Positions 51,910 to 64,000 of a stretch of 64,000 nucleotides of DNA are shown here, piece by piece (position 1 is the first letter of the stretch; every line of letters starts with the position of its first letter). The stretch comes from Candidatus Babeliales bacterium (GTDB taxonomy: Bacteria; Babelota; Babeliae; Babelales; JANWKD01). The notes beneath the pieces are model-generated. The model had not been told where the DNA came from. It searched no databases and worked only from the letters and a program-made list of their open reading frames with translations. The DNA lies in NCBI GenBank assembly GCA_963762115.1, contig CAVXJH010000003.1, positions 224,001 to 288,000 of the forward strand, given 5' to 3'. The position numbers were made by a program, and so were the translations under genes.

Positions 51910-52680
51910 TTATAACGTAACAAATATTTCTTTTCCAGCGGAAACTTTCAAATAATCTCGCGCAGAACCCTGATTAACCGCAATCTCAAGCGTGTTATTA
52001 CTTCCTTTATAACAAAGCAATTGCCCCTGCTTAACCTTATCAAATGTTATTACAAAGGGTACTTCCAAAGATTTATCATCTATCTTCAAATGTATTAACC
52101 TATCAAACCATGTAGGATCAACTTGTATATTAGTTTTAATGTTGCCAAAACTATCTATGTAAGTAATAATTTTTTGCGTTTCTAAACTATCGCACAACGT
52201 AATATCTTTTTTATCAATCGGCAAAAGAGCATTCGTATTATTTTGTGCCAGTTGAATTGCAATCGGCGTAAAAATATCTCTACCATGAAAGGTATTCGAT
52301 TTTTCCGGGAAACATGCTTCATTAATTTTAAACACTTTTACACCCTCTTGTTTCAAAATATAATGAAACAAGCCATTATTTGGCCCAATAAACGTATATG
52401 ATCCAAGTTTTACTACCAAACCATTCCGTTCGGTGCCAACGCCCGGATCAACAACCGTAATAAAATAACTATTTTCAGGAAAATAGGCATAGACCTTTTC
52501 GAGCACAAATGCCCCACTGACAATACAAAATTTTTCTATGGAATGATCAATATCAATAACCGAACAATGAGGAATTTCACGCAATAAGGTAGCCTTTATG
52601 GAGGCAACCGCAAAATCAAGCCCAAAATCCGTTAATAAACCAAAAGTAATATTTGTATTTTTTGAAGATAACAAATTCAT
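51910..52680 (-). CDS. SAM hydroxide adenosyltransferase (DUF62, fluorinase/chlorinase family)
   Basis: LLTDFG, VVDPGVGTER, GPNNG, SNTFHGRDIF, IDSFGN, LEIAVNQGSA. Confidence 0.92.
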   Translation of the reverse strand: MNLLSSKNTNITFGLLTDFGLDFAVASIKATLLREIPHCSVIDIDHSIEKFCIVSGAFVLEKVYAYFPENSYFITVVDPGVGTERNGLVVKLGSYTFIGPNNGLFHYILKQEGVKVFKINEACFPEKSNTFHGRDIFTPIAIQLAQNNTNALLPIDKKDITLCDSLETQKIITYIDSFGNIKTNIQVDPTWFDRLIHLKIDDKSLEVPFVITFDKVKQGQLLCYKGSNNTLEIAVNQGSARDYLKVSAGKEIFVTL

Positions 52681-52784
52681 AGTCAATCTCTCTCATTAAA
52701 AAATGAAATCAAATTACAACAAAAGCACATCCCAAAAGGGATTCGCTTATAAAAAAATAATTGTGGAAAAGAAGATATATGGCC

Positions 52785-52883
52785 TTAGGCCATCATATAA
52801 AGAAGAGAAAATGACATAACCATGAATGCCAAGAACAAAATTTTGCTTGTCTGTGAAAAACAGGAAATAATGTTAAGATTCAT
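52785..52883 (-). CDS. Met-rich leader peptide (32 aa)
   Basis: RBS GAGGTG; MNLNIISCFSQTSKILFLAFMVMSFSLLYMMA*; promoter TTGACA-17-TAGAAT at 52951-52923. Confidence 0.72.
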   Translation of the reverse strand: MNLNIISCFSQTSKILFLAFMVMSFSLLYMMA

Positions 52884-53109
52884 AGTCACCTCAAAGGGTT
52901 GAATTGTTAAATACTCTATTAAATTCTAGAAAACAAATTCAAATTTGTCAATTTTTCAAAAGTCAAAGACATACAGAACAATTTTTTGTATCCTCAGGAT
53001 ATTATTGACGCTTAGAATATTTTATAATTAATAAACATATACTTTTTCTGTATTAATGATAAAACAAGTATCTATATACCTTTATATCGTTATAGAAAGA
53101 AAACATGCT

Positions 53110-54448
53110 ATGAATACGTTTAATAAACTATTAGCAATAGCTATACTAACCTGTACTCTTGGTACTATAACCTTAGGATTTAGTATTTTTAATACAAAAA
53201 ATACTAATACGATGCCAGTCAAAAACATTATTGTTATTGGAACTGGGGCAGCTGGCATAGGTTTTATACATGAAATACTAGAACAAAAAACTCTTGCTCA
53301 CATTACCTGGATAAGCTCTGATAATCATAATCCCTATGATCGAACTAAATTAGATTCAGTAGTTTCGCAAGAAATCTCAGAAAATGCCCCTACTCTCTTT
53401 GATAAAAAGAGTAACAACATTGATCTTCTCTTGGGTAAAAAAAGTAATATCTCTTGATGCTCAGAAAAAAATAGTAGCCTTAGATGATAAAAGCACTTAT
53501 TGCTATGATTATCTTTTTTTAGCAACAGGCTCAACGCCTAATGATCTTTTCCCGGAATCTCCCAAAGCTCAATCAATTAAAGGGATTTTTAATTTTCACA
53601 CCCTAGAAGATGCAAAAAATATTAATGCTTACATCAAGCAAAATACTATAACCGATGCGACAGTAATAGGTTGTGGCATTAATGGTCTTGAAGCAGCTGA
53701 TGCACTTTTTAGACGCGGTATAAAAGTTACTATTATTGATAGAAATGAACATATTTTACAAAATACTATTAATATCGAAGCTTCTCTAGCAATTGAAAAA
53801 AATATAAAAAATATATCTTCTATCACCTGGTATCCAAAATCTTCACTTAAAAATATCATACAAAAAAACGGCAATCTGGAAGGCATAGAACTTACTGATG
53901 GCAAAATAATTAAAACAGCGCTCATAATTAGTACTATTGGTGTAAAACCAAATATATATCTTGCAGAACAAAATGGCTTAACAATAAAAAATAATGCTTT
54001 AATAGTAGATAACACTATGAAAACAAGCGATCCATCAATTTATGCCGGCGGTGATATTATTTTGATATACGATAAAGGCACAAATACCCTCATTAAAAGC
54101 TGTAAGTGGGGAGATGCAGTAAAACAGGGTCATATCGCAGCAAGCAATATACTTGGTATAGAAAAAAAGTATCAAGGTTCCCTAATAGGCTATCGAACAT
54201 CATTCTTTGGTAATACTCTTGTTATGAGTGGGCTATTAAAAAATTACCCTACACAGTACAAAACAATTGAACAATCAGGTATAGATGATATGGGTAAACT
54301 TTTTTATCACAAAATAATCTTAGATAACAATATCATCAAAGGTTTTATTCTCTGTAATAACACGCAATCAGCAAGACGATTACGCAGAGCACTCGAAGAT
54401 CAAACACCATTTAATCATGAACGATTTTTAAGAAGATATAGCAAATAA
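53110..54448 (+). pseudogene. FAD/NAD(P)H-dependent oxidoreductase (rubredoxin reductase/NirB N-terminal-like), +1 frameshift in A7 run 53437-53443
   Basis: IGTGAAG in ORF1; LATGS, IGCGINGLE, IYAGGD in ORF2; removing one A restores LLLGKKVISLD. Confidence 0.8.
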
Positions 54449-54596
54449 AATAACTGTACAATTAAGTTGCTGTCAAAAAAAATTCTAATATTTGTGCAAT
54501 CGTGCAACTATTTTTAGATTGAGCAGTTGAATTTTAAATTTATTCATGCTAATATGGTTATATCTTATTAGAATAAAAATAGTAATAGAGGATAGA

Positions 54597-54771
54597 ATGC
54601 CCATGAACAGCATACTTTTTTCATCCCCGAAACCTTTCCATACCACATACCCAATAGGGTATCTTTGGCTTTGCCAATAAATACCTTCCTCATAGGCTCT
54701 ATCTTACCTATTCTTTATTTTCCAATTTTCCTTATCTGACTTTTCCTTTTTGGTTAAACCATTGGGCGTAA
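54597..54771 (+). CDS. Trp-sensing leader: 27-aa ORF (54597-54680) plus overlapping +1 frame ending W-L-N-H-W-A* at 54771
   Basis: RBS GAGG; promoter TTGAAT-17-TAATAT; GGG TAT CTT TGG C at 54657-54669; +1 frame open 54658-54771 with no ATG/GTG/TTG start. Confidence 0.65.
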
Positions 54772-54859
54772 GCCCGAATATTTTTTGCGGCTAATAACCG
54801 GATTTAAAAACTTTTTTGTTAAAAAATAGTGGTATTTTCCAAAGTTAAGGAAATTTTTT

Positions 54860-55720
54860 ATGAAGAACATTACTTTATTATCTTGTATAGTTTTATTAAT
54901 CAGTTATTCATGTTTTATAAAGGGCATGGAATCAGACATCGAATATAGACAAGCAACCAATGATGATACTGTTGGCATTGTAGATCTGATTAATACTTAT
55001 GCATATAAAGATAATGATAAAATCGTTATCGTTCCAGAAGCATTTCGTGCAGCATACATACAAAGTGCAATCCAAACCAAAAGGCTTTTTGTTGCTTCTA
55101 ATGACAAAACAATTGTTGGCTACAAAAAATTATTTTGTATAACTGACGAACATGAATGCAATGATATTTTAAATAATGAACTACGCTGCACAGAAGATAC
55201 TTCTGCAGGATGTGCATTAATATCTGCGCATGATGAATCTACACAAGATTTTTTACCTGAACAACTAACAACAATCATGTCATTGCCAATAACCTACATT
55301 TATAACGGAGCAGATTTCACCCACCCTCAATATCGTGCACAAGGTATTAATAGCTCTTTAACCAAATATGCACTTGAAGCAACTTCAGATGCAGTGCGTA
55401 AAGATATTGAGAAAAAAAAGAGTACCTATCTTGCCATGGTATATGGATTGACCAAGTCAAATGCCGGTGCCAGCATCGTGGATGGCCGAACTCATGGTAT
55501 TTTTAAACAGTTTGTTTCATTTGCGCAGGCAATAACACATACATTAAAGTGTGCCGAACCATCCCAAGTAATTCTTAGTAGGCATCATGCATTTAAACCT
55601 TCATTTGATCCTAAAGCTACAGAATGCAAGCCTCTCTCAGATAGTCAATCTATTCCAGGATATGGATATCTTGTAGCTTGTGCTTTGGATCAAAACTCCA
55701 ATGAACGAGGTGATCTATGA
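54860..55720 (+). CDS. GNAT-like acetyltransferase-fold protein with signal peptide
   Basis: IEYRQAT..D...I..LI, FVA...IVGY, THPQYRAQGINSSL. Confidence 0.65.
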   Translation: MKNITLLSCIVLLISYSCFIKGMESDIEYRQATNDDTVGIVDLINTYAYKDNDKIVIVPEAFRAAYIQSAIQTKRLFVASNDKTIVGYKKLFCITDEHECNDILNNELRCTEDTSAGCALISAHDESTQDFLPEQLTTIMSLPITYIYNGADFTHPQYRAQGINSSLTKYALEATSDAVRKDIEKKKSTYLAMVYGLTKSNAGASIVDGRTHGIFKQFVSFAQAITHTLKCAEPSQVILSRHHAFKPSFDPKATECKPLSDSQSIPGYGYLVACALDQNSNERGDL

Positions 55721-56883
55721 TTACCTTGCTACAAAAATATTTAGAAATTAATACTGCACATCCACATCCTCAGTATCACGCTGCTATTGCATTGTTTAAA
55801 AAGCAAGCAGAAAATGATGGTTTTTTGGTTACTGAACTTATTCTTCCTTCCGGCAATCCCGTGCTTATTATTACCTTGCAAGGCAGTTGTCTTGAAATGC
55901 CTGCCCTTGCATTAAATCATCATATGGATGTTGTTCCAGCTGATAATAAAGATGAATGGCTATTTAATCCATTTGCAGGAACAGTTCATGAAGATTATAT
56001 CTATGGAAGAGGTACACAAGATTGTAAAGGTCTTGGTGTAGTTCAATATGCAGCATTAAAAATGCTTAAGCAAAGCGAATTACAATCGGCAAGGACGATT
56101 CATTATATTATGGTTCCTGATGAAGAGCGCGGTGGATTTCATGGCATGAAAGAATTTGTTGAACATCCATTATTCGCATCATTTAACATAGGATATGTTT
56201 TAGATGAAGGCCTGCCTTCAGGAGATGATAACGAATTGCTCATTAAGATTGATGAACGTACGCCAATACAAATATGCATAACAAGTAGAGGGCAACAAAG
56301 CCATGCATCAGGATTACTTAATAAAAATTGCATTCATGAATTGACTAATTTTCTGGCAAATATTGCGGCATTTCAATCCAAACAACAACAAGAAGTTGCA
56401 TTGAATCAAGCCGGGCATCATATTTCAATGCATATTACTTCATTAAGTACAAATAATACTGCATTGAATGTTATTCCTACGCAAGCGCAAGCTACGCTTG
56501 ATATGCGCATACCATCGCACTTGTCTTTGGATTACGGAATTTCTTTAATAGATGAATTAATACAAAAACATACGAGTACTACCTATGAAATTTTAGCAAC
56601 AAGTCAGGAACGTTTTAAAATAATTAAAGAAGATTCAATGTTTTACCAAACACTTGCCCAAGCTGTTACTGATCATGGCATTAGTCCAAAATCTTTTGCA
56701 TTTGAAGCGACAACTGATGCCAGATTTTATAGCCACAAAGGCATTCAAGCAATTGGGCTTACGCCATTCACGGTTACGCCAAACTTACATGGTACTAATG
56801 AAAGTATTTATATAAACGATTTGGTGCAAGGAACCGCAGTTTTATATACCTTTTTACGTGCATTTTGCACATTAAATAATTGA
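55717..56883 (+). CDS. M20 family aminoacylase (ACY1-like N-acyl-L-amino-acid amidohydrolase)
   Basis: LNHHMDVVP, IYGRGTQDCK, VPDEERGG, LDEG, TDARF, LHGTNE. Confidence 0.85.
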   Translation: MITLLQKYLEINTAHPHPQYHAAIALFKKQAENDGFLVTELILPSGNPVLIITLQGSCLEMPALALNHHMDVVPADNKDEWLFNPFAGTVHEDYIYGRGTQDCKGLGVVQYAALKMLKQSELQSARTIHYIMVPDEERGGFHGMKEFVEHPLFASFNIGYVLDEGLPSGDDNELLIKIDERTPIQICITSRGQQSHASGLLNKNCIHELTNFLANIAAFQSKQQQEVALNQAGHHISMHITSLSTNNTALNVIPTQAQATLDMRIPSHLSLDYGISLIDELIQKHTSTTYEILATSQERFKIIKEDSMFYQTLAQAVTDHGISPKSFAFEATTDARFYSHKGIQAIGLTPFTVTPNLHGTNESIYINDLVQGTAVLYTFLRAFCTLNN

Positions 56884-56895
56884 TAAGGAAAAAAA

Positions 56896-57891
56896 ATGAA
56901 AAAACTAATTATACTATTATTAGTGATTACAGGCGCAATCACTTTTTATTATGCCAAGCAGCACCTACTTGAAAAAGAAGAGCAAACAAATACTCAACAA
57001 TTGCATATTGCACTCTTTACCCCGATAGCACATCCAGCACTTGAAGAAATTGAACAAGGCTTTAAAGAAAAGTTACAACAACTAAACTTAAAGCAATGCG
57101 TTTTTACAACATTCAATGCTAATGGCAACAGAACATTATTGCGAGCACAAGCAGAAGAAATTGTGCAAGGTAATTATGATCTAATATTTTCCATGGGAGC
57201 GATGTGTTCACAAACGATTGCTGAGCTGCTGAAGAAAAAAAACCTCGAAACGCCGCATGTGTTTGCTGGTGTTGATGGTCCTGAGTTTGCTCTTTCATTA
57301 CAATCTTTGAATGAATCAACCACAGGCGTTTATGTAAAATCAGATTATGAACAAGAGCTCAGCATTCTTTTTAAACTTAAACCGGACACAAAAAACATTC
57401 TTCTTGCATACGATCCAACCCATGGTGTCGGTTTAGAAAAACAAAAGAACGAAATCGAAGAATATAGCAAAAAACATGGTGCAACATTACACAGCGTTGA
57501 AATTTATCAAACAAATGAAATTCAACAAAAGGTTGCAGCATCATTATCTAATATAGATGTTGTGCTTGTGCTTACTGATAACACAGTGGTTGCAGGCGTT
57601 GATGCTCTTATTGCATTATGCAATCGATTTGGCGTTACTTTGATGGCATCAGATTTGCCGTCAGGGAAAAAAGGCGCTGCATTATCCTACGGAATAAGTG
57701 AATACGAATCAGGTACTGGCGCTGCGCAAAAAGCACAGATGATACTACAACAAAATAAAAAACCACATGAAGTTCCCGTAACCGCCATAACTAATTTCCG
57801 ACTCCACATCAATAAAGACACCATGAAAATGCAGAATTTGACTCTTGATCATGAGACTTTAGAACAATTAGAAAAGGAGATCTCATGTTGA
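56896..57891 (+). CDS. ABC substrate-binding protein, Trp/Tyr-type (ABC_sub_bind)
   Basis: HPALEEIEQGF, NANGN, TDNTV. Confidence 0.85.
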   Translation: MKKLIILLLVITGAITFYYAKQHLLEKEEQTNTQQLHIALFTPIAHPALEEIEQGFKEKLQQLNLKQCVFTTFNANGNRTLLRAQAEEIVQGNYDLIFSMGAMCSQTIAELLKKKNLETPHVFAGVDGPEFALSLQSLNESTTGVYVKSDYEQELSILFKLKPDTKNILLAYDPTHGVGLEKQKNEIEEYSKKHGATLHSVEIYQTNEIQQKVAASLSNIDVVLVLTDNTVVAGVDALIALCNRFGVTLMASDLPSGKKGAALSYGISEYESGTGAAQKAQMILQQNKKPHEVPVTAITNFRLHINKDTMKMQNLTLDHETLEQLEKEISC

Positions 57892-58766
57892 ACACCTTGC
57901 TCGTTATTATCGAGCAAACCATGTTGCACTTACCGTTAATGTTTGGAGCTTATGTAAGTTTTTCATTATTAAAAGTCCCCGATTTAAGCATTGAAAGCGC
58001 TTATGTGGTTGGTGCAATTTTAGGTTCATCCGCTCTGATCAATATTGTAAATGTTCCTATGAGTATGATGATTTTCATCATACTCATGGCCAGCTTTCTT
58101 GGTGGAGCACTGGTAGGCATGACTTCAAGTTTGCTTACTCAAAAAGCTAAATTTCCCCATTTACTAAGCAGCATTGTTACCTTTGGTTTATTCCATGGTA
58201 TTAATCAGTTTATTTCAGCAACGTATGTTTCGTTAAGTAAAATAGATAATCCGCTTAGATTGCTTAACGGTATAACTCAATATCCTGAACTGCCCGTGCT
58301 CATTGTGATCGGTTGCCTTATTACAAGTCTTATGTATGCATTATTTAAAACACAACTTGGTTATGCATATGCAGTCTATGGCAACAATTCACAATTTTTT
58401 AAAAATTATGGCACCTCAACATCATTTGTATTTATTACCGGCATTATGATTGCCAATGGCTTGGCTGGCATAAGTGGTTATATGTTTGCACAATCAAACA
58501 ACTTTTTTGAACTTAATATGGGCCTTGGCAAGGCCCTTCTGTGCATCACAGCGCTTATCCTAGGAAAAGGCATACTGCACACAAAAAAACCGTTTTCAGT
58601 TGCTGTACCATTAGTTGGAACAGGTGCCTACTTTTCATTACAACAGTTACTGCTTAAAGTTGGGTTCAATTTAAAATATTTTACTGCCGTGCAAGCATTG
58701 TTGGTATTATGCATTTTGGTATATACCTTCCGAAAACAACCATGCAACGATAATTTGGGGGTATGA
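57885..58766 (+). CDS. ABC permease, Trp/Tyr-type
   Basis: PDLSIESAY, KTQLG, G.N, ANGLAGISG, MGLG. Confidence 0.85.
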   Translation: MLNTLLVIIEQTMLHLPLMFGAYVSFSLLKVPDLSIESAYVVGAILGSSALINIVNVPMSMMIFIILMASFLGGALVGMTSSLLTQKAKFPHLLSSIVTFGLFHGINQFISATYVSLSKIDNPLRLLNGITQYPELPVLIVIGCLITSLMYALFKTQLGYAYAVYGNNSQFFKNYGTSTSFVFITGIMIANGLAGISGYMFAQSNNFFELNMGLGKALLCITALILGKGILHTKKPFSVAVPLVGTGAYFSLQQLLLKVGFNLKYFTAVQALLVLCILVYTFRKQPCNDNLGV

Positions 58767-59461
58767 CTATGTTTATTAAACATCTTTCATTTAAATTTAA
58801 CAAAAAGAGTGCTCAATCCTTTTTTCAGAATATAACAATCGCATTTGCACCCAATAAGGTCCATTTTATTCAAGGTGATAATGGTGTGGGAAAATCAACA
58901 TTTTTCAATATACTACAAGGAGCCATCGGAAAAGATGCTTACTTAGAGGCATCTATACAGTTGGATGGCACCACATTTAACACACACAATACTATGTTGC
59001 CGCATGTATTTACACAACAGGTGCACGTAGTGCAGCAAAATTATGATAGTATGATTGCAAATCAATTTACCTTCATGGAAAATTTGCAATTGGCAAACTT
59101 ACCTATGTATCCACATTTAAAACCACTACCTCAAGCAACATTGTTTGATGTCATTAAAACATTAGGCATAGATCCACATAAACCTGCTTATCTTTTATCA
59201 GGCGGCCAACGCCAATTATTGGCAATACTCATGGCATTACAAAAAACAACAAAACTATTATTACTTGATGAACCAACGGCGACCCTTGATAAAAAAAATG
59301 CGGATCTCATTATGCAATGCCTATTTCAACTTGCAGAGCAACTCAAGGTAACTATGCTGATTATTTGCCACGATAAAGAACTGGTGAAACAATATGCACA
59401 GGAAAATAATTTTGTTATTCAACAGTTAGAAGATGGTACGCGAATGATACATAAAACCTAA
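58763..59461 (+). CDS. ABC ATP-binding protein
   Basis: GDNGVGKST, LSGGQRQ, LLDEPTATLD, H. Confidence 0.9.
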   Translation: MTMFIKHLSFKFNKKSAQSFFQNITIAFAPNKVHFIQGDNGVGKSTFFNILQGAIGKDAYLEASIQLDGTTFNTHNTMLPHVFTQQVHVVQQNYDSMIANQFTFMENLQLANLPMYPHLKPLPQATLFDVIKTLGIDPHKPAYLLSGGQRQLLAILMALQKTTKLLLLDEPTATLDKKNADLIMQCLFQLAEQLKVTMLIICHDKELVKQYAQENNFVIQQLEDGTRMIHKT

Positions 59462-59575
59462 AAATAGTATCCGATGTGTAATAATTAAAGCTGGGTTATT
59501 ATTTTAATTATTATTAAATGTATTATACTTGTATTAATCGAATATAATTTTCAAGATAAACAGTTAGGAAAACAT

Positions 59576-60558
59576 ATGCATAGAAAGAAAAAATTATCCA
59601 AATTATTTTTTATATCATTATTAATGTGTACTGCACTATTAAATGGCATGGAAGAAAAAAAAAACAATTTTTCATGTGATTTATTTAATACAAAAAAATC
59701 AGAATTACAAGCAATACCCCGTAAATGCTGTAAGCAGTATAAAAAATTATCAAAAATAGATAATACATCACTAACAACACTCTATGCATGGAGAGGAAAT
59801 GCCACGCCGCTGCTATATATGCCTCAAGAATATTTTGATTCAACGCAAAATGATTCTATGAACTTGAAAGCATTGTTTGAAAACTGTCAATTAGTTTCTG
59901 ACAACAATGTATTTATGCTCCATGATGAACCTAAGCCATGGGTGGAAAAAGAGCACAAGGGCAAGAGGATTTTTTACCTCGTTTGTATCAACCAAGAATT
60001 TCTTTAGATGCACTGCCGCAGCTATTACATAATGCAAAATCTATTCTTAAAGCCTTTTTACCTAGCGAAGAATTTATTTTTGACAAACAAAAATTTATTC
60101 AAAAAGGCGGTGCCATAGATCGGCTTTTTACCTATGCTAAACTGCAGCGCACTATTCAAGAAAAACAATTGTCGAATGTTTCTCTTCCACGAAAATTACT
60201 TATTATACAAGATAAAGAAAGTGGTAAATATATTGATAGTCAAAGCGCTCAAAATATTTTAGATGATGCACTAAAAATTGCTGTTTTGTATTCAAGTGCC
60301 GTTGAAATCAAAATGAATTGTTATTCACACAAATATGCTTTACTGATTTTTGCAGAAAGAAAAATAAACCATAACACACCATTAAATCAAGCAGCATTCG
60401 AAGATTTAAAAACACTCACTGCTGAAGCGCCATTTGATGTTGGCTATGATAATATTTTTAGTGATGAAAATGGCAATGCAATTGTTATAGATTCAGAATT
60501 TAAGGGCGAACCAGCTGAAACTTCCATACTAAAATTGAATCGATATAAACACAATTAA
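59576..60558 (+). pseudogene. Secreted protein with kinase-like C-terminal motifs, split by an apparent -1 frameshift near 59946-59950
   Basis: ORF1 signal LNG-ME; overlapping ORF2 with DVGYDNI...IVIDSE. Confidence 0.5.
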
Positions 60559-60597
60559 TCAAGATTTTAAAGTATCTCTTTTGACAACTTCGTACAC

Positions 60598-60641
60598 GGA
60601 TGAAGGAGAAGCCGCTGCTTAACAAAGCTTCTCCTTCATCC
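60598..60641. terminator. 15-bp perfect hairpin between convergent genes
   Basis: ggatgaaggagaagc/gcttctccttcatcc. Confidence 0.65.
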
Positions 60642-60649
60642 ATGGTTAT

Positions 60650-62023
60650 TTACTGCACACTTCTTTTTTTTACTTCTTGAGCAATTTCATACATACGATG
60701 AGTCATAGCTGAAAGCCCTTTTGGATCCATTAAAAGATAAAAATTCATAACCGTGTTTTTATCTTTATTCACGGTATCATATTCAATAATATCAGAATGT
60801 AAAACCACTCTTGATTGAACATACGGCAATAATTCCTTGTATTGTTCCTGTAATTCCATAACAGAATAATCACCAGCTTTAACACCAAGCATTTGTGAAA
60901 CATAACACCATTGTTCAGCTTTCTTTCGCGGTATCATCATTTGTAATAATCCTGCACTTGCTTGTTTTTCATAGTCATGGAGCTCAGCTTTATATTTTTC
61001 ATAAAGATCTTCTGCACCATAGTCTTTGAATATCTGCTGTATAATTGTTGTATCAACATCCTTTGCCAAAGTATCAAATAACATAGGCAAATAAACAACA
61101 TCAGAAGGATTTTTAATAAGAGCACTCACAATTTTTGGAAGAACCATCACTTGCGACATGAGCAGACCAACAACATTTAAAGAAACATCAGCAGTTTGAT
61201 ATGCCCACGAACACGGCTTTGCAATAAATTCTATGCTTGACTCTTTTCTTGGATTATTTATCCATGAAGTATTCCCATACAATCCTGCATTAACACTGAG
61301 AAGCTCTTCTCGATTATCAGTAAGATCCATATAAACCATCTCATTTCCTGTTGGAACTGGGTTACCATAAAGTATAACCCGCATTTCTTTAACCCGTGGT
61401 GCTTTTTTATAACGATCATCGTAATATTCTTGTGCATTTGCTTGTTGTATTTTGTTTTTTGCTTTTTGCACATCTCTTATTTGCACAAAATGTTCTTTAG
61501 GAGCATCATGCAAAACTTCATCGAAAATAGTTCTTAAAAGCATTGATGCACCTTTATGCGTTCCATGCACACAGCAGAAATAATCCTGCTCTTTATAAAC
61601 ACCCTCTTCATGACAAACATATTCAGTAAGATTATTCAATTCTTTGCGCATCTTAGGCATTACCACCCAACTTTCAGCTAATGAAAGCCTATTTATTTGC
61701 GCTCTACTCAAAATGGATCTATCACTAGGCGTAGCTAACGATAACACACTATCATGGTTAATCTGATCCTTTGTTACCGATGCCACGATTTTTTTCTCTT
61801 TATAATGCGCAAGAAGATTACTCACTTTCTTAGGTGTGGCTGGCGAACTTACTTCAATCATCTCTCGTGCATCATAACAATCTGCGACATATGCTGCCGC
61901 TGTTAAAATCCCCAGCGTTGCAATCTCTTTTTTATGAAGATACAGTTTTTCCATACCCAAAAGAGCATTACTTAATAACAACAAGATGAATGGCATACAC
62001 CACTTTATAAGTTTTAATATCAT
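60650..62023 (-). CDS. Hypothetical secreted protein (457 aa)
   Basis: RBS AAGGA; signal ending LLG-ME; no family recognised. Confidence 0.75.
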   Translation of the reverse strand: MILKLIKWCMPFILLLLSNALLGMEKLYLHKKEIATLGILTAAAYVADCYDAREMIEVSSPATPKKVSNLLAHYKEKKIVASVTKDQINHDSVLSLATPSDRSILSRAQINRLSLAESWVVMPKMRKELNNLTEYVCHEEGVYKEQDYFCCVHGTHKGASMLLRTIFDEVLHDAPKEHFVQIRDVQKAKNKIQQANAQEYYDDRYKKAPRVKEMRVILYGNPVPTGNEMVYMDLTDNREELLSVNAGLYGNTSWINNPRKESSIEFIAKPCSWAYQTADVSLNVVGLLMSQVMVLPKIVSALIKNPSDVVYLPMLFDTLAKDVDTTIIQQIFKDYGAEDLYEKYKAELHDYEKQASAGLLQMMIPRKKAEQWCYVSQMLGVKAGDYSVMELQEQYKELLPYVQSRVVLHSDIIEYDTVNKDKNTVMNFYLLMDPKGLSAMTHRMYEIAQEVKKRSVQ

Positions 62024-62173
62024 AGTTTTATTCCTTTAAACGTATTACTACGTATTTTTATCGTTCTATTTATATACATACAAGGTAATCAACATTTTCA
62101 CGAAAAAAGACGTGAAGGTGCCGGACACAATGATCACGAATTAAGATCGCAATCACCATTCATTAAAAAATAA

Positions 62174-62326
62174 TTAAAAACTAAAGGGAAAGAAAAAAGA
62201 AAAAAATGGACAGGGAAAAAGAAGAGTAGATTTGAATGAAAGATGTGGCGAAATATTCAGGAGCATTTTTGCTTCTATCCTGAGCTTTCTTTTATTAGAT
62301 TCGCAAGGTTTTTGTTGAGATAACAT
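62174..62326 (-). CDS. Phe-rich leader peptide (50 aa)
   Basis: RBS AAGGAAGG; ...STLLFPCPFFSFFFPFSF*; 8 Phe in last 14 codons; TTGACA-16-TAAGCT upstream. Confidence 0.65.
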   Translation of the reverse strand: MLSQQKPCESNKRKLRIEAKMLLNISPHLSFKSTLLFPCPFFSFFFPFSF

Positions 62327-62549
62327 GACCTTCCTTTTCTTTAAAATGGTAAAAATAATACATGCTTGTGTATAAGCTTACAATATATAAATTTAATGTC
62401 AATATGAAATTAAATGTTTTTTAAAATTACAATATCAAATCAGGATTATTCTTAAATTTTCAAAAAAAAATTTCTTCTACTTTAAAGCTTATCTATAACC
62501 AAAAAACTAGTTCTTGCTATTTGTATTATTTAATGGTATAAATAATAAT

Positions 62550-62696
62550 ATGAAGATTAAAAAACCTACTATTCACAACTCATCCTTAGGTGCTAAAGCT
62601 TGTGGCCTTAACAGAGCCAAAAGCCAGAATTGCGCCCTTTCTTATATCAATTCTTATTATTTTTATTTTATATATGAGGGGTCGCATTATGCCTAA
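62550..62696 (+). CDS. Tyr(/Phe)-rich leader peptide (48 aa)
   Basis: MKIKK...CALSYINSYYFYFIYEGSHYA*; 6 Tyr and 2 Phe in last 17 codons, none earlier. Confidence 0.8.
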   Translation: MKIKKPTIHNSSLGAKACGLNRAKSQNCALSYINSYYFYFIYEGSHYA

Positions 62697-62731
62697 ATTA
62701 TAAATTTGAAAAATTATAAGGCAATTTGCGC

Positions 62732-62764
62732 AAAACCCCCGTTAAAAAACGGGGGTTTTTTTTT
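62732..62764 (+). terminator. Attenuator terminator upstream of ilvE
   Basis: aaaacccccgtt-aaa-aacgggggtttt plus U run, 50 nt before the ilvE ATG. Confidence 0.88.
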
Positions 62765-62813
62765 GCCAAAAACTTACATGTTGTTGTTAACAATTAATAA
62801 AAGGAAAACAAAG

Positions 62814-63713
62814 ATGAATCAATCAGTTATATGGCTTGACGGAACCTTAGTTCCATGGGATCAGGCTACAATTCACCTAATGACCCACACATTGCATTAT
62901 GGTTCAGGAGCTTTTGAAGGCATTCGATGCTATGCAACAGAACAAGGTCCCGCAATTTTCAGATTATCTGATCATGTTGATAGATTATTGCATTCATTTT
63001 CTTGTTTTGGCACCAAAATTCCCTGGACAAAAGCAACATTAGAACAAGCAATTATTGATACAATAAAAGCAAATAAACTTGATAACTGTTATATCCGCCC
63101 TCTTATTTTTTTTGGATCAGAATCACTCTTATTAAGTCCAAAAAACTTATCGGTTCATTGCGCTATTATTGTTATTGGCATGGATAAATATTTAGGAAAA
63201 GAAGCTATCAATGTTGGCATTTCTTTGATTAGACGTATTAACCCTCAATCAGTGCCAATACATAACAAAATAAATGGTTATTACGTTAATTCTATTTTTG
63301 CTTTTCATGAAATAAAAGATCGTGGATTTGATGAAGCCTTATTGCTCGATCATGAAGGAAATATCTCAGAAGGCTCTGTAGCTAATATATTTTTCGTTAT
63401 TGATGGCATACTCAAAACACCACCCCCCACATCAATTTTGCCGGGCATAACACGTGCATCAGTATTAACTATTGCTCAAAAATTAAATATTAAAACCAGT
63501 GAAGAAACAATAACCTTGCATGATATTACCCGAGCAACAGAAGCATTTTTTACCGGAACAGCAAGCGAAATTACATCAATTAAACAAATTGAACAAAAAG
63601 AATTTTCATTAACTCAAAATAAATTCACACAAAAAATAAAGAATTCTTATCATAATTGTATAACAGGAAAAGATACCTCTTTTAAATCTTGGTTAACACA
63701 TATTAATAATTAA
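62814..63713 (+). CDS. ilvE: Branched-chain/class IV amino-acid aminotransferase
   Basis: LHYGSGAFEGIRCY, YIRP, K..G.Y.NS, EGSVANIF, ILPGITR, FFTGTASEI. Confidence 0.92.
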   Translation: MNQSVIWLDGTLVPWDQATIHLMTHTLHYGSGAFEGIRCYATEQGPAIFRLSDHVDRLLHSFSCFGTKIPWTKATLEQAIIDTIKANKLDNCYIRPLIFFGSESLLLSPKNLSVHCAIIVIGMDKYLGKEAINVGISLIRRINPQSVPIHNKINGYYVNSIFAFHEIKDRGFDEALLLDHEGNISEGSVANIFFVIDGILKTPPPTSILPGITRASVLTIAQKLNIKTSEETITLHDITRATEAFFTGTASEITSIKQIEQKEFSLTQNKFTQKIKNSYHNCITGKDTSFKSWLTHINN

Positions 63714-63738
63714 TCGTTATATAAGAAAAGGACCCCAT

Positions 63739-64000
63739 ATGAAAAAAATGATTTTGATTATAGTAATCATAATAACAGTTGTTACGAGCTTTATTATTAT
63801 TAAACGTACAAAAAAAACAGGCTCACCAACCGCCCTCACTATTGGCATACTGCAAACAGCATCACATCCAGCACTCGATGCTTCTCGTGATGGTTTCATC
63901 GAAGAATTAAAAAACAAAATGGGCAACAACATTGAATTTATCACTCAAAATGCACAAGGCTCAGTAGCTCAATCTCATGCAATCGCACAACAATTTCATG
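63739..64000 (+). CDS. ABC substrate-binding protein, Trp/Tyr-type, truncated by window end
   Basis: Not in ORF track; MKKMILIIV...IGILQTASHPALDASRDGFIEEL...QNAQG. Confidence 0.8.
   Translation, partial: MKKMILIIVIIITVVTSFIIIKRTKKTGSPTALTIGILQTASHPALDASRDGFIEELKNKMGNNIEFITQNAQGSVAQSHAIAQQFH

Follow-up and report, generated by a model that had tools for sequence, protein, structure and literature searches.

The leader of a likely tryptophan-import operon in Candidatus Babeliales bacterium (GCA_963762115.1) very probably carries a programmed +1 frameshift site at which the slow A-site codon is the tryptophan codon UGG, as judged from a comparative signature. The leader lies at 54597-54787 on the forward strand of the window, by which we mean the whole 64,000 nt analysed (contig CAVXJH010000003.1, positions 224,001-288,000, forward strand). 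The genome, of 1.53 Mb and 95% complete, belongs to the Dependentiae (Babelota), a phylum of parasites of protists. An earlier note on this DNA had proposed a prfB-like +1 site with UGG in place of UGA, and the comparison bears this out: we find 32 distinct two-frame Trp leaders in the phylum, the window's included, and all 32 share one layout, a short ORF with a late Trp codon and a +1 frame that runs across a variable C/U-rich tract to a terminal Trp motif.

How is the leader built? Its ORF (ORF0, 54597-54680, + strand) opens with an ATG at 54597 behind the Shine-Dalgarno (SD) sequence AGAGGA at 54587-54592 (+), the top-scoring start under the blind rule described below when scored with the genome's own 16S 3' end. 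It encodes 27 residues, MPMNSILFSSPKPFHTTYPIGYLWLCQ, with a lone Trp at codon 24 (54666-54668, preceded by GGG TAT CTT) and a stop four codons on, at 54678-54680. Within the stretch ATA GGG TAT CTT TGG C (54654-54669), the predicted shift cassette occupies 54657-54669 (+) and consists of the SD-like GGG(T), the E-site codon TAT, the P-site codon CTT and the A-site codon TGG, followed by C. The +1 frame, open from 54658 onwards (a TAG stands at 54655-54657), contains no ATG, GTG or TTG; its 34 codons after the shift (54667-54771, +) end in WLNHWA-stop, so that the predicted shifted product would be 23 + 34 = 57 residues long. The C/U-rich, G-poor tract at 54681-54750 (+) is unstructured and, by its composition and folding energy, a predicted Rho loading site. 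It is followed at 54751-54787 (+) by the terminal Trp codons (54751 and 54763), a GC hairpin (54762-54777) and an A/U tail; the TAA stop (54769-54771) sits inside the 6-bp hairpin TTGGGC-GTAA-GCCCGA, after which comes ATATTTTTTG. On re-reading, the earlier note proved exact in the cassette, both frames, the hairpin and the 57-residue count; the tract it had described is present, but is shorter than the roughly 90 nt given there, measuring 70 nt from the stop to the first +1 Trp codon and 85 nt from the shift codon. The sequence GGGTATCTTTG occurs once in the genome. Upstream, a candidate promoter picked by eye (TTGAAT, 17 nt, TG-N-TAATAT; 54527-54555, +) has TTGAAT-like and TGCTA-like pieces that recur in three to four of four close orthologues; a consensus promoter scan made no plus-strand call at the leader, this candidate included.

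The relatives were collected with the substrate-binding protein of the operon as query, which matched 73 of 261 genomes of the phylum at E 1e-20. We took 60 upstream regions (55 from the best binding-protein matches, two from first-gene matches and three from distant paralogues) and 80 of 101 metagenome loci. Most of these regions hold a leader that ends in Trp codons within a small GC hairpin; 61 are one-frame leaders of 15-58 codons, and a further 23, picked out by eye, are two-frame. A blind rule, which selected the best SD-led short ORF with a late Trp and then any downstream Trp cluster while ignoring frame and junction codon, was applied to 101 loci, leaving out seven duplicates, twelve with less than 150 nt upstream, four others and any below 33% identity. 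Where a single-Trp ORF was followed by an open frame to the cluster, that frame was +1 in 19 cases, +2 in one and 0 in none, and in the +2 case (L144) the Trp-Trp cluster itself sits in +1. All 19 of the +1 leaders have CCC, GTT, CTT or TTT before the TGG. The rule missed three two-frame loci (L047, L137, L151), found no leader in nine and chose implausible ORFs in several others. A BLASTN search of the leader against the 261 genomes gave two hits above noise, G057 and G194.

Two further searches enlarged the set. Thirteen loci chosen through an unrelated protein yielded six new two-frame leaders, one already counted, five one-frame leaders and one locus without a leader in the stretch read; the six new ones all have CCC TGG C, all lie in +1, and none has a +1 start codon. 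A search pattern at the DNA level, with CCC TGG C and the terminal TGGTGGCC fixed and any frame allowed, matched seven of the 261 genomes, all seven in +1, with no control matches, and gave three new leaders upstream of the same GNAT-like and M20 genes; in these three of the 32, CCC was set by the search pattern. From the junction to the first terminal Trp codon the distance ranges over 40-154 nt and is always a multiple of three plus one, so that the frame is +1 in 32 of 32. These leaders are akin, falling into about four transporter clusters and two other modules, and are not 32 independent events.

Such constancy bears on the trivial explanation that an assembly indel, or chance, has split an ordinary Trp leader. 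The window does contain other split genes, and contigs of one soil read run, which contains 40% of the sequence words, do not span 54466-54909, but 31 other leaders have the same layout and junction, among them L225 from the cultured isolate Noda2021, whose genome is closed (a PacBio-only assembly; PMC8812299). The orthologues thus refute this explanation, to which we give practically no weight. The earlier note had held that relatives with one continuous ORF would speak against a shift; instead, all 12 slippery-site leaders of the nearest clade have the +1 layout, and nine of the other 11 in that transporter clade keep the frame-0 stop three to five codons after the TGG. As a refinement to that note, ordinary one-frame Trp leaders are about twice as numerous at the same operons.

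The junction itself has the marks of a programmed shift. The P-site codon in the 23 curated leaders is CCC in 11, GTT in seven, CTT in three and TTT in two, and all 32 stay within these four codons. By comparison, the same four precede 9.6% of the 3978 TGG codons in 1093 long ORFs of the genome (CCC 0.3%) and nine of the 121 Trp codons of one-frame leaders; where proline precedes Trp, it is encoded by CCC at 11 of 11 junctions and by CCT in 10 of 10 cases in one-frame leaders. The earlier expectation of a conserved TAT-CTT-TGG-C in two frames is met as to the layout, CTT being merely one of four codons and CCC the commonest. At the window site, CTT-T permits re-pairing at +1. In the A site, 32 of 32 have TGG and none an RF2 stop (UGA or UAA), the E-site codon ends in T in 22 of 23 (TAT 10, TGT 7), and a C follows the TGG in 22 of 23. 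Anti-SD pairing, computed from the 16S 3' end of the genome itself, stays level upstream and is strongest immediately 5' of the E-site codon: an SD-like element of -3 kcal/mol or better is found in 17 of 23 two-frame leaders (12/12 with NTT, 5/11 with CCC) against none of 61 one-frame leaders, and that of the window, 3 nt before the slippery codon, reaches -3.5 kcal/mol. Over all CCC sites, it is present in eight of 20 and absent from 12. In the nearest clade, two conserved islands flank a variable linker, and the pattern T-x-T-x-T-T-T-G-G is invariant while the encoded residue varies between Val, Leu and Phe.

These codons are in familiar company. CUU, CCC and UUU are named, in the accessible part of PMC10885494, as slipping most readily at the RF2 site, a ranking from Curran 1993, and the available text of PMC1874602 names UUU, GUU and CCC as natural antizyme +1 shift codons. 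That hungry A-site codons promote +1 shifts is stated in the portion of PMC2377451 at hand. The 41 tRNAs found in the window's genome include a single tRNA-Pro (UGG anticodon); on the basis of this set, CCC is likely read there by a near-cognate tRNA, which would favour a slip. Work of the 1990s reportedly found tRNA-Trp-dependent shifting at CUU-UGG within an RF2 construct. A point against the shift is that GUU re-pairing on UUU has a first-position mismatch.

Could the second frame be reached without a shift, by re-initiation at an overlapping AUG or a near-cognate codon, as two small ORFs? All seven GTT sites do have a +1 AUG 5 nt before the TGG, L069 has upstream +1 AUGs, and the window has AUC in that place. 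Yet the AUGs of the GTT sites have no SD at a distance suited to initiation (0 to -1.1 kcal/mol), ATG, GTG and TTG are all missing from the +1 frame before the junction in 17 of the 29 leaders checked, and CCC, TTT and CTT would be left unexplained, making re-initiation very unlikely. We consider just as improbable that ORF0 acts by itself, as a single-Trp attenuator or a TnaC-like arrest peptide, with shifting incidental and the downstream TGG codons mere hairpin arms. This reading can draw on the terminal TGG lying within a conserved stem and on E. coli pheL, where CCC-UGA shifts at 15% with no known use, according to the accessible part of PMC5009743. It has to contend with a frame that holds in 32 of 32 across linkers of many different lengths, with extra Trp codons outside the stem that share this same frame, and with ORF0 peptides (11-35 residues) that have no motif common across clades (GYLW, GCFW, VNPW and ACPW occur). 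Locally, the C-terminal GY[LV]WL[CG]Q is kept in L002, L046, L047, L137 and L140. A programmed shift at the Trp codon remains our reading of the junction.

A search for the same cassette with other hungry codons, among 947 SD-led short ORFs genome-wide, returned eight matches, two being the window site and the other six unconvincing. A second use of the junction was considered for the first operon gene of L119, which is broken at TGT CCC TGG C, a junction as in the leaders, with a +1 continuation (raw 2506-2859 and 1830-2522, - strand). Since 12 of 13 homologues read through 282-383 codons without interruption and the second break, in L252, coincides with a direct repeat, we take the L119 break as a one-off.

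The operon behind the leader (all genes on the + strand) begins with a gene at 54860-55720 for a weakly GNAT-like protein (Atlas score 0.93; orthologues E 0.005-0.04), for which a Pfam search gave no match. It continues with an aminoacylase-like M20 peptidase (55717-56883; PF01546, E 1e-32; TIGR01880, E 2e-75, below cut-off), a TrpX-related ABC substrate-binding protein (56896-57891; PF04392; PDB 3LFT, 3LKV, 6HNI), which at 133.8 bits falls far below the cut-off of 390 of the TrpX model NF041285, and an ABC permease and ATPase (57885-59461; PF02653, PF00005). Of the labels in the earlier note, the aminoacylase and the ABC binding protein thus hold, and GNAT finds weak support. A trpB gene over cut-off was found in none of the 261 genomes, with one broken gene in G189, nor in the window's genome; in L237, trpR lies directly upstream of a homologous binding protein, and in a relative trpS and an amino acid permease gene share an operon that opens with a one-frame Trp leader. 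From the trpB result, the resemblance to TrpX and this trpR and trpS context, the operon likely serves Trp import, and the bacterium is likely a Trp-auxotrophic intracellular parasite. Upstream of trpS itself, neither a leader nor a slippery-TGG-C was found in the window's genome or in the 27 readable loci among the 30 best-scoring of 245 genomes.

Some observations on these neighbourhoods stand apart. The trpR ORF of L237 (3190-3465; PF01371, E 8e-23) closes with Trp-Arg-stop, as the one-frame leaders do, and the repressor gene may double as a leader. A palindrome TGTAA...TTACA, presumably a TrpR operator, is common to the upstream regions of L226, L231, L232, L233, L165 and L173, before chlamydial-type homologues; L230 and L233 have one-frame Trp leaders. 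In L261-L266 and L270-L272, a two-gene module for proteins of no assigned function (about 335 and 250 residues), the second weakly SGNH hydrolase-like (Atlas score 0.91), has Trp leaders of both types in front of it and, in one case, an amino acid permease gene and trpS behind it.

What would such a shift accomplish? When Trp is plentiful, UGG would be decoded in frame and the ribosome would be released at the stop two to six codons further on. This early release would bare 30-140 nt of unstructured, C/U-rich RNA together with the end hairpin, upon which Rho could load and terminate transcription. With Trp scarce, the A site would stand empty, and the internal SD and a weak E-site codon would let the P-site tRNA slip by +1, the next codon being GGC. 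The shifted ribosome would then translate across the tract, covering the rut-like sequence and the hairpin, and would stall again at the terminal Trp codons that form a hairpin arm, so that transcription could continue. Given the shift, its dependence on Trp seems quite probable to us, and attenuation would be the output of the leader; both are read from sequence. That some form of frameshift-gated attenuation operates here we hold to be probable, and toward the full Trp-gated, Rho-dependent model we lean slightly. The constancy of the A-site codon is relevant to another possibility, that a real but near-constant shift meters the supply of ribosomes to the terminal Trp codons, where sensing would then take place as in one-frame leaders. 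Sixty-one one-frame leaders of the same operons manage without the cassette, a slippery codon plus SD shifts even on sense codons, and a kinetic model, in the available part of PMC2377451, gives a hungry codon an effect of just about 2-fold. Against a constant throttle stands the TGG in the A site of every junction, with no stop or other rare codon instead in 101 loci, for which, it should be said, the rule required a Trp in ORF0; we regard the throttle as decidedly unlikely and retain Trp gating.

For the termination step, the tract is the main guide. That of the window is 79% pyrimidine, with 27% C, 4% G and an MFE of -2.5, and among 504 background upstream windows none equals it in high C and low G content; pooled over the leaders (1580 nt), the tracts have 72% pyrimidine and a C/G ratio of 2.6, against 50% and about 1.0 in the 504 background windows. 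Some tracts are poor for Rho, being short (28 nt in L128, 31 nt in L243) or structured (L045, -28.5 kcal/mol); in L134 the frame-0 stop lies 14 codons beyond the Trp. The last Trp codons are covered by a hairpin in 21 of the 23 two-frame leaders and in 53 of the 61 with one frame, against six of 200 coding Trp codons. UUU directly follows the stem in none of the 23 and seven of the 61, the U tracts across the leaders being non-canonical. Because the tract is C-rich and G-poor, a rho gene is present in the genome and the U tracts are poor, we favour Rho as the probable terminator, with the hairpin as a likely pause site for RNA polymerase.

Alternatively, the shift may be Trp-gated with an output other than Rho, the end hairpin and its A/U tail being a weak, NusA-assisted intrinsic terminator (or a switch in mRNA stability or structure) that the shifted ribosome melts. 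The hairpin's presence in 74 of 84 leaders and the short tracts fit this version, as does the window's end hairpin (-8.9 kcal/mol, with the tail ATATTTTT), which passes a simple intrinsic-terminator scan, two being found against 0.1 in shuffles; in the nearest clade a second hairpin follows, with varied pairs and alternative folds. That second hairpin, however, is weak in the window and absent from many leaders, the median is four U in 8 nt, the stems are at -6 to -8 kcal/mol as against -15.3 kcal/mol with nine U in the genome's own Tyr/Phe leader terminator, and the C-rich, G-poor tract is conserved; we rate intrinsic termination as unlikely, if the strongest of the competing readings. Under either terminator, the two-frame design would make a clean switch, in which early release bares the element and the shift covers it. 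Rfam covariance models, including those for T-boxes and riboswitches, gave ten matches to E 5 within 52500-64000, none overlapping the leader. Stalling at Trp codons can also have the opposite effect, as in Chlamydia, where it promotes termination rather than preventing it, according to the part of PMC7755916 available. Two further folds were noted in the window alone: one in which the tract pairs with the SD of the leader (z -2.2), and a hairpin that takes in the internal SD.

In a quick-method tree of 88 binding proteins with 22 two-frame rows, the latter fall into four clusters with one-frame members inside, requiring at least eight changes, four of them forced by strong branches; on such a tree, gains and losses of the two-frame design are not separable. 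Two one-frame leaders hold remnants of the cassette, decayed in frame in L058 and intact, outside the translated frame, in L065. They are possible evolutionary intermediates, and remnants of this kind are what one would expect were the shifted path to do the same job as a leader with one frame.

How does the leader relate to known systems? At the prfB site, as described in the accessible text of PMC12421855, an internal SD lies three bases before the slippery codon, the E-site codon ends in U, the slip is from CUU-U or UUU-U, and a slow U-initial A-site codon is followed by C. The leader shares the SD-like element, the spacing, the U-ending E-site codon, the slippery codon and the slow U-initial codon followed by C. 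In contrast to prfB, its A site holds the sense codon UGG, the signal would be charged tRNA-Trp and not RF2, CCC and GUU are common, and the site lies in the leader of an ABC operon, with a product of no evident function; the genome's own prfB (L040) is continuous and has no frameshift site, even though a prfB-like cassette is retained elsewhere in that genome. Closest in its use of a leader is ermCL, where a ketolide-induced frameshift leads ribosomes on into the spacer and so activates the gene behind it (in the accessible part of PMC5009743); there, however, the signal is an antibiotic, the output is the unfolding of a translation-initiation structure, and a cassette of SD, slippery codon and hungry codon for an amino acid is lacking. 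E. coli pheL likewise shifts +1 on CCC-U in an amino-acid attenuator leader, but does so at a stop codon and is judged incidental in the same source, whereas here the new frame is conserved and ends in Trp codons. Antizyme resembles the leader as a metabolite-sensing +1 shift with UUU, GUU and CCC in its P-site set (PMC1874602, accessible part), differing in being eukaryotic, in shifting at a stop codon, in making a functional protein and in sensing polyamines.

Among attenuators, classical trpL has one frame, tandem Trp codons and a strong terminator/antiterminator pair. The leader resembles it as a Trp-codon leader peptide before likely Trp-supply genes in which stalling is predicted to allow read-through, but it has two frames, Trp codons in a seemingly weak hairpin and a U tract of a kind that is non-canonical across the leaders; a single ORF from an SD-led start to tandem Trp codons is absent here and present in the 61 one-frame relatives. 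In tnaC and other Rho-dependent leaders, the leader-bound ribosome hides the rut site from Rho, tnaC sensing free Trp through a conserved arrest peptide such that high Trp induces. Common to both are an unstructured, C-rich and G-poor tract after the leader stop and rho in the genome; here, however, there is no conserved peptide, and the predicted logic is opposite. At the ribosome the leader appears to behave as prfB does, and at the polymerase as a Rho-type attenuator; it combines two known kinds and falls within neither family.

The earlier note knew of no attenuator built in this manner, and our searches agree: the searchable literature, in which subscription papers and supplements are poorly covered, returned neither a natural leader frameshift gated by Trp nor any work on leaders of Dependentiae, and look-ups of terms in the accessible parts of PMC3711429 and PMC11550727 likewise gave no natural Trp-gated leader frameshift. 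The available portion of the 2016 Atkins review (PMC5009743) names ermCL and pheL as leader-ORF frameshift cases. We therefore consider it reasonably probable that these leaders form a new attenuator class, in which a natural, conserved frameshift senses an amino acid, a hungry Trp codon is the switch, the shifted ribosome is the antiterminator, two Trp checkpoints act in series, and the design was gained or lost several times within the Dependentiae. For many years, hungry-codon frameshifting has been studied on artificial constructs and as starvation errors; a conserved natural system, if true, would be a new entry among both attenuation mechanisms and regulatory recoding. The 32 natural variants, with four slippery codons and with or without an SD, and their one-frame sister leaders as built-in controls, can be tested directly in E. 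coli reporters, and the design occurs in a cultured isolate. It would offer a possible route by which a likely Trp-auxotrophic parasite senses the Trp of its host, and a compact part for Trp biosensors.

Elsewhere in the window, a pyridine nucleotide oxidoreductase gene (53056-54448, +) is split into two overlapping frames, and two ORFs of no assigned family lie in overlapping frames at 59576-60558 (+); both splits are possible assembly indels or pseudogenes. A second leader peptide, at 62550-62696 (+), contains the Tyr/Phe run YYFYFIY and is followed by the canonical terminator at 62735-62766 used for comparison above. Downstream of it lie a gene for an aminotransferase IV and another ABC operon with PF04392; the leader has a weak Rfam Phe_leader match (28 bits against a gathering threshold of 55), and, over 62550-62766, looks like a classical Tyr/Phe attenuator.
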